Positions 63,924 to 64,000 of a stretch of 64,000 bases of DNA are shown here, in pieces. Origin of the DNA: Escherichia coli (GTDB lineage Bacteria; Pseudomonadota; Gammaproteobacteria; Enterobacterales; Enterobacteriaceae); NCBI RefSeq assembly GCF_003334385.1, contig NZ_QOWN01000002.1. One strand, written 5' to 3'. A program made the translations under genes and the position numbers. Positions within the stretch are counted from its first letter, which is position 1; the number at the start of each line of letters is the position of its first letter. A model generated the notes under the pieces. It made no database searches and was not told the DNA's origin. It was given only the letters and a program-made list of their open reading frames with translations.

Positions 63924-64000
63924 TGGTTGCGGGGGCCGGATTTGAACCGACGACCTTCGGGTTATGAGCCCGACGAGCTACCAGGCTGCTCCACCCCGCG
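63924..64000 (-). tRNA. metY: Initiator tRNA-fMet (metY), 77 nt, CAU anticodon, G at position 46
   Basis: Reverse complement CGCGGGGTGGAGCAGCCTGGTAGCTCGTCGGGCTCATAACCCGAAGGTCGTCGGTTCAAATCCGGCCCCCGCAACCA; C1-A72 mismatch and three G-C pairs in the anticodon stem are initiator hallmarks. Confidence 0.92.

Follow-up and report, generated by a model that had tools for sequence, protein, structure and literature searches.

The G46 metY gene of an Escherichia coli strain close to K-12: an ordinary, already known allele of the initiator tRNA gene

The stretch of Escherichia coli DNA analyzed here, referred to below as the window, is 64,000 nucleotides long, and its last 77 positions (63924-64000) are a complete tRNA-fMet gene, metY, that carries G at position 46. 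The G46 metY of this strain is real, ordinary and already known. It is almost certainly the normal ancestral allele, and it is equally close to certain that the G/A polymorphism at this position comes from one G-to-A transition private to K-12. A difference between K-12 and B at metY has been in the literature since 1992, according to the statement in PMC3017606 that cites Mandal & RajBhandary 1992.

A single tRNA, tRNA-Met(CAT), was found by ARAGORN in the whole window, on the minus strand at 63924..64000. The Rfam tRNA model RF00005 matched it with 61.4 bits (gathering score 29, E = 2.3e-12). The minus-strand sequence is CGCGGGGTGGAGCAGCCTGGTAGCTCGTCGGGCTCATAACCCGAAGGTCGTCGGTTCAAATCCGGCCCCCGCAACCA; it has 77 nt, includes an encoded CCA, and contains CCCGAAGGTCGTCGG, the variable-loop string quoted in an earlier reading of the sequence alone. 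An extra base in the D loop, 17a, shifts canonical position 46 to linear base 47 of the gene. The gene, the position in question and the genes beside it are as follows.

63924..64000, minus strand: metY, initiator tRNA-fMet gene, anticodon CAT, tRNA-fMet1-type (ARAGORN, Rfam, identity to K-12 metZ/W/V)
63954, minus strand: canonical tRNA position 46 of metY, G (C on the plus strand), where K-12 metY has A (alignment)
63735..63835, minus strand: rimP leader, between metY and rimP (Rfam RF01770, 102 bits, gathering score 47, E = 8.3e-18)
63802-63779 and 63754-63742, minus strand: two terminator-like hairpins in the rimP leader (terminator-like sites)
63265..63717, minus strand: rimP, ribosome maturation factor, 150 aa, annotated TTG start (ORF; annotation in near-identical genomes)
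61750..63237, minus strand: nusA, 495 aa (ORF; annotation in strain 26561, REL606 and MG1655)
59053..61725, minus strand: infB (IF2), 890 aa (ORF; annotation in strain 26561, REL606 and MG1655)
57126..58889, minus strand: rbfA, truB and rpsO, distal to infB (ORFs; strain 26561 annotation)

The features of an initiator tRNA can be read directly from the gene. Position 1 is C and position 72 is A, giving the C1xA72 mismatch that is a determinant of formylation, and base 1 is unpaired in the fold. Three consecutive G-C pairs (29-41, 30-40 and 31-39) are located in the anticodon stem; the role of these pairs in initiator tRNA is described in PMC5389676. The D stem contains A11:U24 (A11 and T24 in the DNA), and the C13-G22 pair is also present in the sequence. 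The minimum-free-energy fold is a cloverleaf. Its thermodynamic z-score of -0.9 is unremarkable, as is usual for tRNAs, and carried no weight as evidence. The window stops at the mature 5' end of the tRNA, so the promoter and 5' leader of metY lie outside it. Sub-threshold Rfam matches to STnc430, RsmY and a reverse-strand rimP were set aside as chance.

The gene was aligned to metY, metZ, metW and metV of K-12 MG1655, taken from NC_000913.3. It is identical to metZ, metW and metV in all 77 bases and to K-12 metY in 76 of 77, the sole difference being G in the window and A in K-12 at position 46. Over the 401 bp from 63600 to 64000 this position is also the sole difference from MG1655. The metY of REL606 (E. 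coli B) carries G46, as the window does. The sequence-only reading had named the tRNA as metY with G46, giving no strand for it, and had proposed alignment to metY/metZ references as a check; run with the MG1655 genes, the alignment gave G and not A at 46, and re-reading located the base at 63954 on the minus strand. The same alignment bore out its statement that K-12 metY has A46 and K-12 metZWV has G46. Its statement that metY of B strains has G46 was confirmed by the REL606 sequence and is in line with PMC3017606, where it is stated, with citation of Mandal & RajBhandary 1992, that all four initiator genes of E. coli B encode tRNA-fMet1. The K-12 initiators with m7G46 and with A46 are described in PMC3017606, PMC5389676, PMC7949028 and PMC8887418, and when a 2026 preprint aligned six laboratory and probiotic strains (K-12, B, C, W, Crooks and Nissle 1917), A46 appeared solely in K-12 metY (bioRxiv 10.64898/2026.04.16.719103).

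A sequencing or assembly error, or a non-functional copy of the gene, is scarcely conceivable as the origin of this G46. The 401-bp stretch occurs at 100% identity in thousands of independent complete genomes, and the tRNA is full length, has every hallmark of an initiator and is identical to the functional metZ, metW and metV of K-12.

The locus is the metY locus: a lone initiator tRNA gene is located directly upstream of the rimP leader on the same strand. Downstream of metY the minus strand carries the rimP leader, rimP, nusA and infB, and then rbfA, truB and rpsO. In strain 26561, which is nearly identical to the window (4 SNPs in 25.5 kb), the annotated gene order matches, and a divergent argG is annotated just past the point that corresponds to the end of the window. 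The order metY-rimP-nusA-infB is also annotated in MG1655 and REL606. The earlier placement of the gene at the 5' end of metY-rimP-nusA-infB is thus upheld as a gene order by the Rfam leader, the ORFs and the annotation of strain 26561; for the operon status of these genes, PMC3017606 and PMC6511841 cite published E. coli work.

How common the two alleles are in E. coli was measured by BLAST against 5426 complete E. coli genomes, with probes that join tRNA positions 17-77 to the metY-specific 3' trailer. Since the trailer is included, metZWV copies are unable to give the best match, and one mismatch puts such a probe under the 99% identity band. The 91-nt G46 probe was exact in 4699 of the 5426 genomes, and the 91-nt A46 probe in 365 (6.7%). 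About 362 genomes were unassigned with the 401-bp and 91-nt probes because of an unrelated SNP in the trailer, C to T at 15 nt past the CCA, which was seen, for instance, in an O9:H10 pig isolate that retained G46. Most genomes left over by the 91-nt probes have this SNP and keep G46. When the trailer was cut to 14 nt, the 75-nt G46 probe was exact in 5045 of the 5426 genomes (93.0%), and the 381 inexact genomes consist of the 365 with A46 and 16 exact to neither allele probe, to which the unassigned genomes were thereby reduced.

With an E-value cut-off that passes perfect matches alone, the A46 probe was found in the same number of genomes, 365, at one place in each and always on the chromosome. 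The class was described from 120 of these 365 rows (the first 60 and 60 sampled evenly), and nearly all of those bear the name of a laboratory derivative of K-12, such as MG1655 and lines evolved from it, W3110-type strains, DH5alpha, DH10B, DH1, C600, J53, MC4100, HB101, XL1-Blue, Origami, Keio strains and O16:H48. The other rows among the 120 are unlabelled, or are farm-animal or food isolates, with K-12-sized genomes of 4.5-4.8 Mb; these are likely K-12-type recipients or transconjugants. The 365 may include a rare natural carrier of A46 outside K-12. Among the genomes with G46 are O157:H7 and many isolates from humans, animals and the environment.

Some further observations were made in the same genomes. 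The median number of places matching the initiator tRNA was 4 per E. coli genome. Four of about 21,177 initiator-tRNA matches in the complete E. coli genomes are plasmid-borne, and the others are chromosomal. Only one genome of the 5426, NZ_CP064103.1 (E. coli IR53017), has no full-length match to metY with its trailer; the best place in it is a 64-nt match with 98.4% identity, one of 3 in the whole genome. The metY locus of this strain may have been deleted or rearranged.

The direction of the change was explored with a 31-mer reaching from the anticodon loop to the T loop, searched in 100,044 bacterial and archaeal species represented by one genome each. The A46 31-mer had no exact match among the 100,044 species-representative genomes. 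The G46 31-mer, which served as the positive control in the same set, was found in at least 120 stretches; the matches listed include Escherichia albertii, Citrobacter, Enterobacter, Providencia, Photorhabdus, Vibrio, Shewanella, Aeromonas, Pseudoalteromonas, Pseudomonas and others. In 42 of the 120 stretches listed, a rimP homologue follows the tRNA on the same strand at a distance of 100-300 nt; the taxa include Citrobacter, Enterobacter, Photorhabdus, Vibrio, Shewanella, Aeromonas and Pseudomonas. The spread of the G46 31-mer across Gammaproteobacteria, often before rimP, together with the absence of the A46 31-mer, argues that G46 metY is ancestral and A46 derived. On this distribution, G46 metY ahead of rimP is the ancestral state of the class, and A46 an allele derived in the K-12 lineage. 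As A46 is absent from the species representatives, the simplest history is one G-to-A change on the K-12 branch. The gammaproteobacterial type of G46 31-mer was also observed in metagenome-assembled genomes labelled Desulfosporosinus and Oscillospiraceae, where binning contamination is the likely cause.

The window itself is very close to K-12. From 26778 to 64000 it differs from MG1655 by 9 SNPs in 37.2 kb (99.976% identity), and from 12107 to 24482 by 5 SNPs in 12.4 kb. Compared with REL606, 162 SNPs were counted in 28.5 kb (99.43% identity). In the last 28.5 kb there are 5 SNPs against K-12, of which 2 are private to K-12: metY position 46 and nusA L384. Codon 384 of nusA (62088), a synonymous Leu codon, is CTG in the window, REL606 and strain 26561 and TTG in MG1655, so that REL606 and strain 26561 share the base of the window at both positions. 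Three SNPs, at 57642, 57306 and 43329, set the window apart from MG1655, REL606 and strain 26561 alike. The first is a non-synonymous change in truB codon 283 (TruB I283 in the window, V in the others), and the second a synonymous change in rpsO codon 30. Elsewhere in the window, at about 13252-13644, BLAST matches against the K-12 yhaC-rnpB intergenic region are offset 113 bp apart, which indicates a short tandem array with repeats of roughly 113 bp.

A segment of 2.3 kb (24483-26777, within the context 24107-27336) is present in the window and missing from K-12 MG1655. The window has intact agaW, agaE and agaF (NCBIfam equivalogs above cut-off) and a full-length agaA-like deacetylase; agaW and agaA of MG1655 are annotated as pseudogenes. 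Retention of this segment implies that the source is not K-12, despite near-identity elsewhere. By these comparisons the source strain is, at the metY locus, a wild strain very closely related to K-12 rather than to B.

Two other accounts of G46 can be weighed against these data. G46 could mark a B-type lineage, that is, one like E. coli B or BL21, as REL606 metY also has G46 and the literature contrasts K-12 with B (PMC3017606). This is very improbable, since at least 93% of complete E. coli genomes, of every kind, have G46, and 162 sites in 28.5 kb separate the window from REL606, against 9 sites in 37.2 kb for K-12. A window derived from B was ruled out by these SNP counts. Alternatively, the ancestor could have been K-12-like with A46, with metZWV later acting as donor in a gene conversion that restored G46 in metY. 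In favour of this, the region hardly differs from K-12, and typical E. coli genomes provide three identical donor copies; there is nevertheless very little chance that this occurred, because the window keeps the segment with intact agaW/E/F/A that is deleted in K-12, lacks the K-12-private nusA SNP at 62088, and A46 is absent from all species representatives. The aga segment and the nusA SNP show that the source is related to K-12 without descending from it, and on their account a reversion or gene conversion within the K-12 line of descent was rejected. The normal ancestral allele remains the preferred reading of G46 in this window.

The sequence-only reading had also called G46 a lineage marker. 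As framed, this does not stand, for G46 is the default of the species and of the class (5045 of 5426 genomes in E. coli); what stands is its negative form, "not K-12". Since G46 is the default and A46 the K-12 allele, G46 says that a strain is not K-12 and nothing more specific.

In tRNAs of this type, TrmB/YggH converts G46 by methylation into m7G46, which stacks on the C13-G22 pair of the tRNA core. The A46 form of K-12 (tRNA-fMet2) works as an initiator even without m7G46. The metY described here specifies a tRNA identical to the product of metZ, metW and metV, namely tRNA-fMet1. If metZWV of this strain is typical, which is assumed for genes outside the window, the strain would have a single initiator tRNA species, as E. 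coli B does. Both m7G46 modification and a single-species pool are thus inferred for the source strain, trmB being, like metZWV, outside the window. YggH/TrmB makes m7G46 with SAM (PMC7949028). The initiator pool of K-12 consists of two tRNA-fMet species, at about 75% and 25%, which differ at position 46 alone (m7G versus A) and resolve on native gels (PMC5389676, PMC8887418).

On these results the exception is textbook K-12 with its two initiator tRNA species; E. coli in general, and Gammaproteobacteria at large, follow the rule of a homogeneous G46 pool. G46 at metY excludes only a K-12 laboratory origin. It may be useful as a quick check of contamination or provenance, and its significance is small. 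The metY isoform of K-12 has been suggested to aid fitness under nutrient limitation, in work cited in one statement of 10.64898/2026.04.16.719103. That the A46/G46 difference is physiologically relevant, and that the K-12-private A46 is a recent adaptive or domestication mutation, is an unlikely idea; if true, the strain of the window, with 9 SNPs in 37 kb and aga intact, would offer a natural near-isogenic comparison, bracketing the point at which A46 arose.

The metY of the window can finally be placed among the known initiator genes. K-12 metY (b3171, tRNA-fMet2) has the same locus and flanks, with argG upstream in near-identical genomes and rimP-nusA-infB downstream, but it carries A46, whereas the window carries G46 and hence has the tRNA-fMet1 sequence as its product. 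K-12 metZ, metW and metV (tRNA-fMet1) have the same sequence as the window gene at a different locus: they form a three-gene tandem array between mltA and amiC, while the window metY is a single copy before rimP-nusA-infB. E. coli B REL606 shares both the locus and the G46 allele with the window, although its surrounding DNA is 0.57% divergent.
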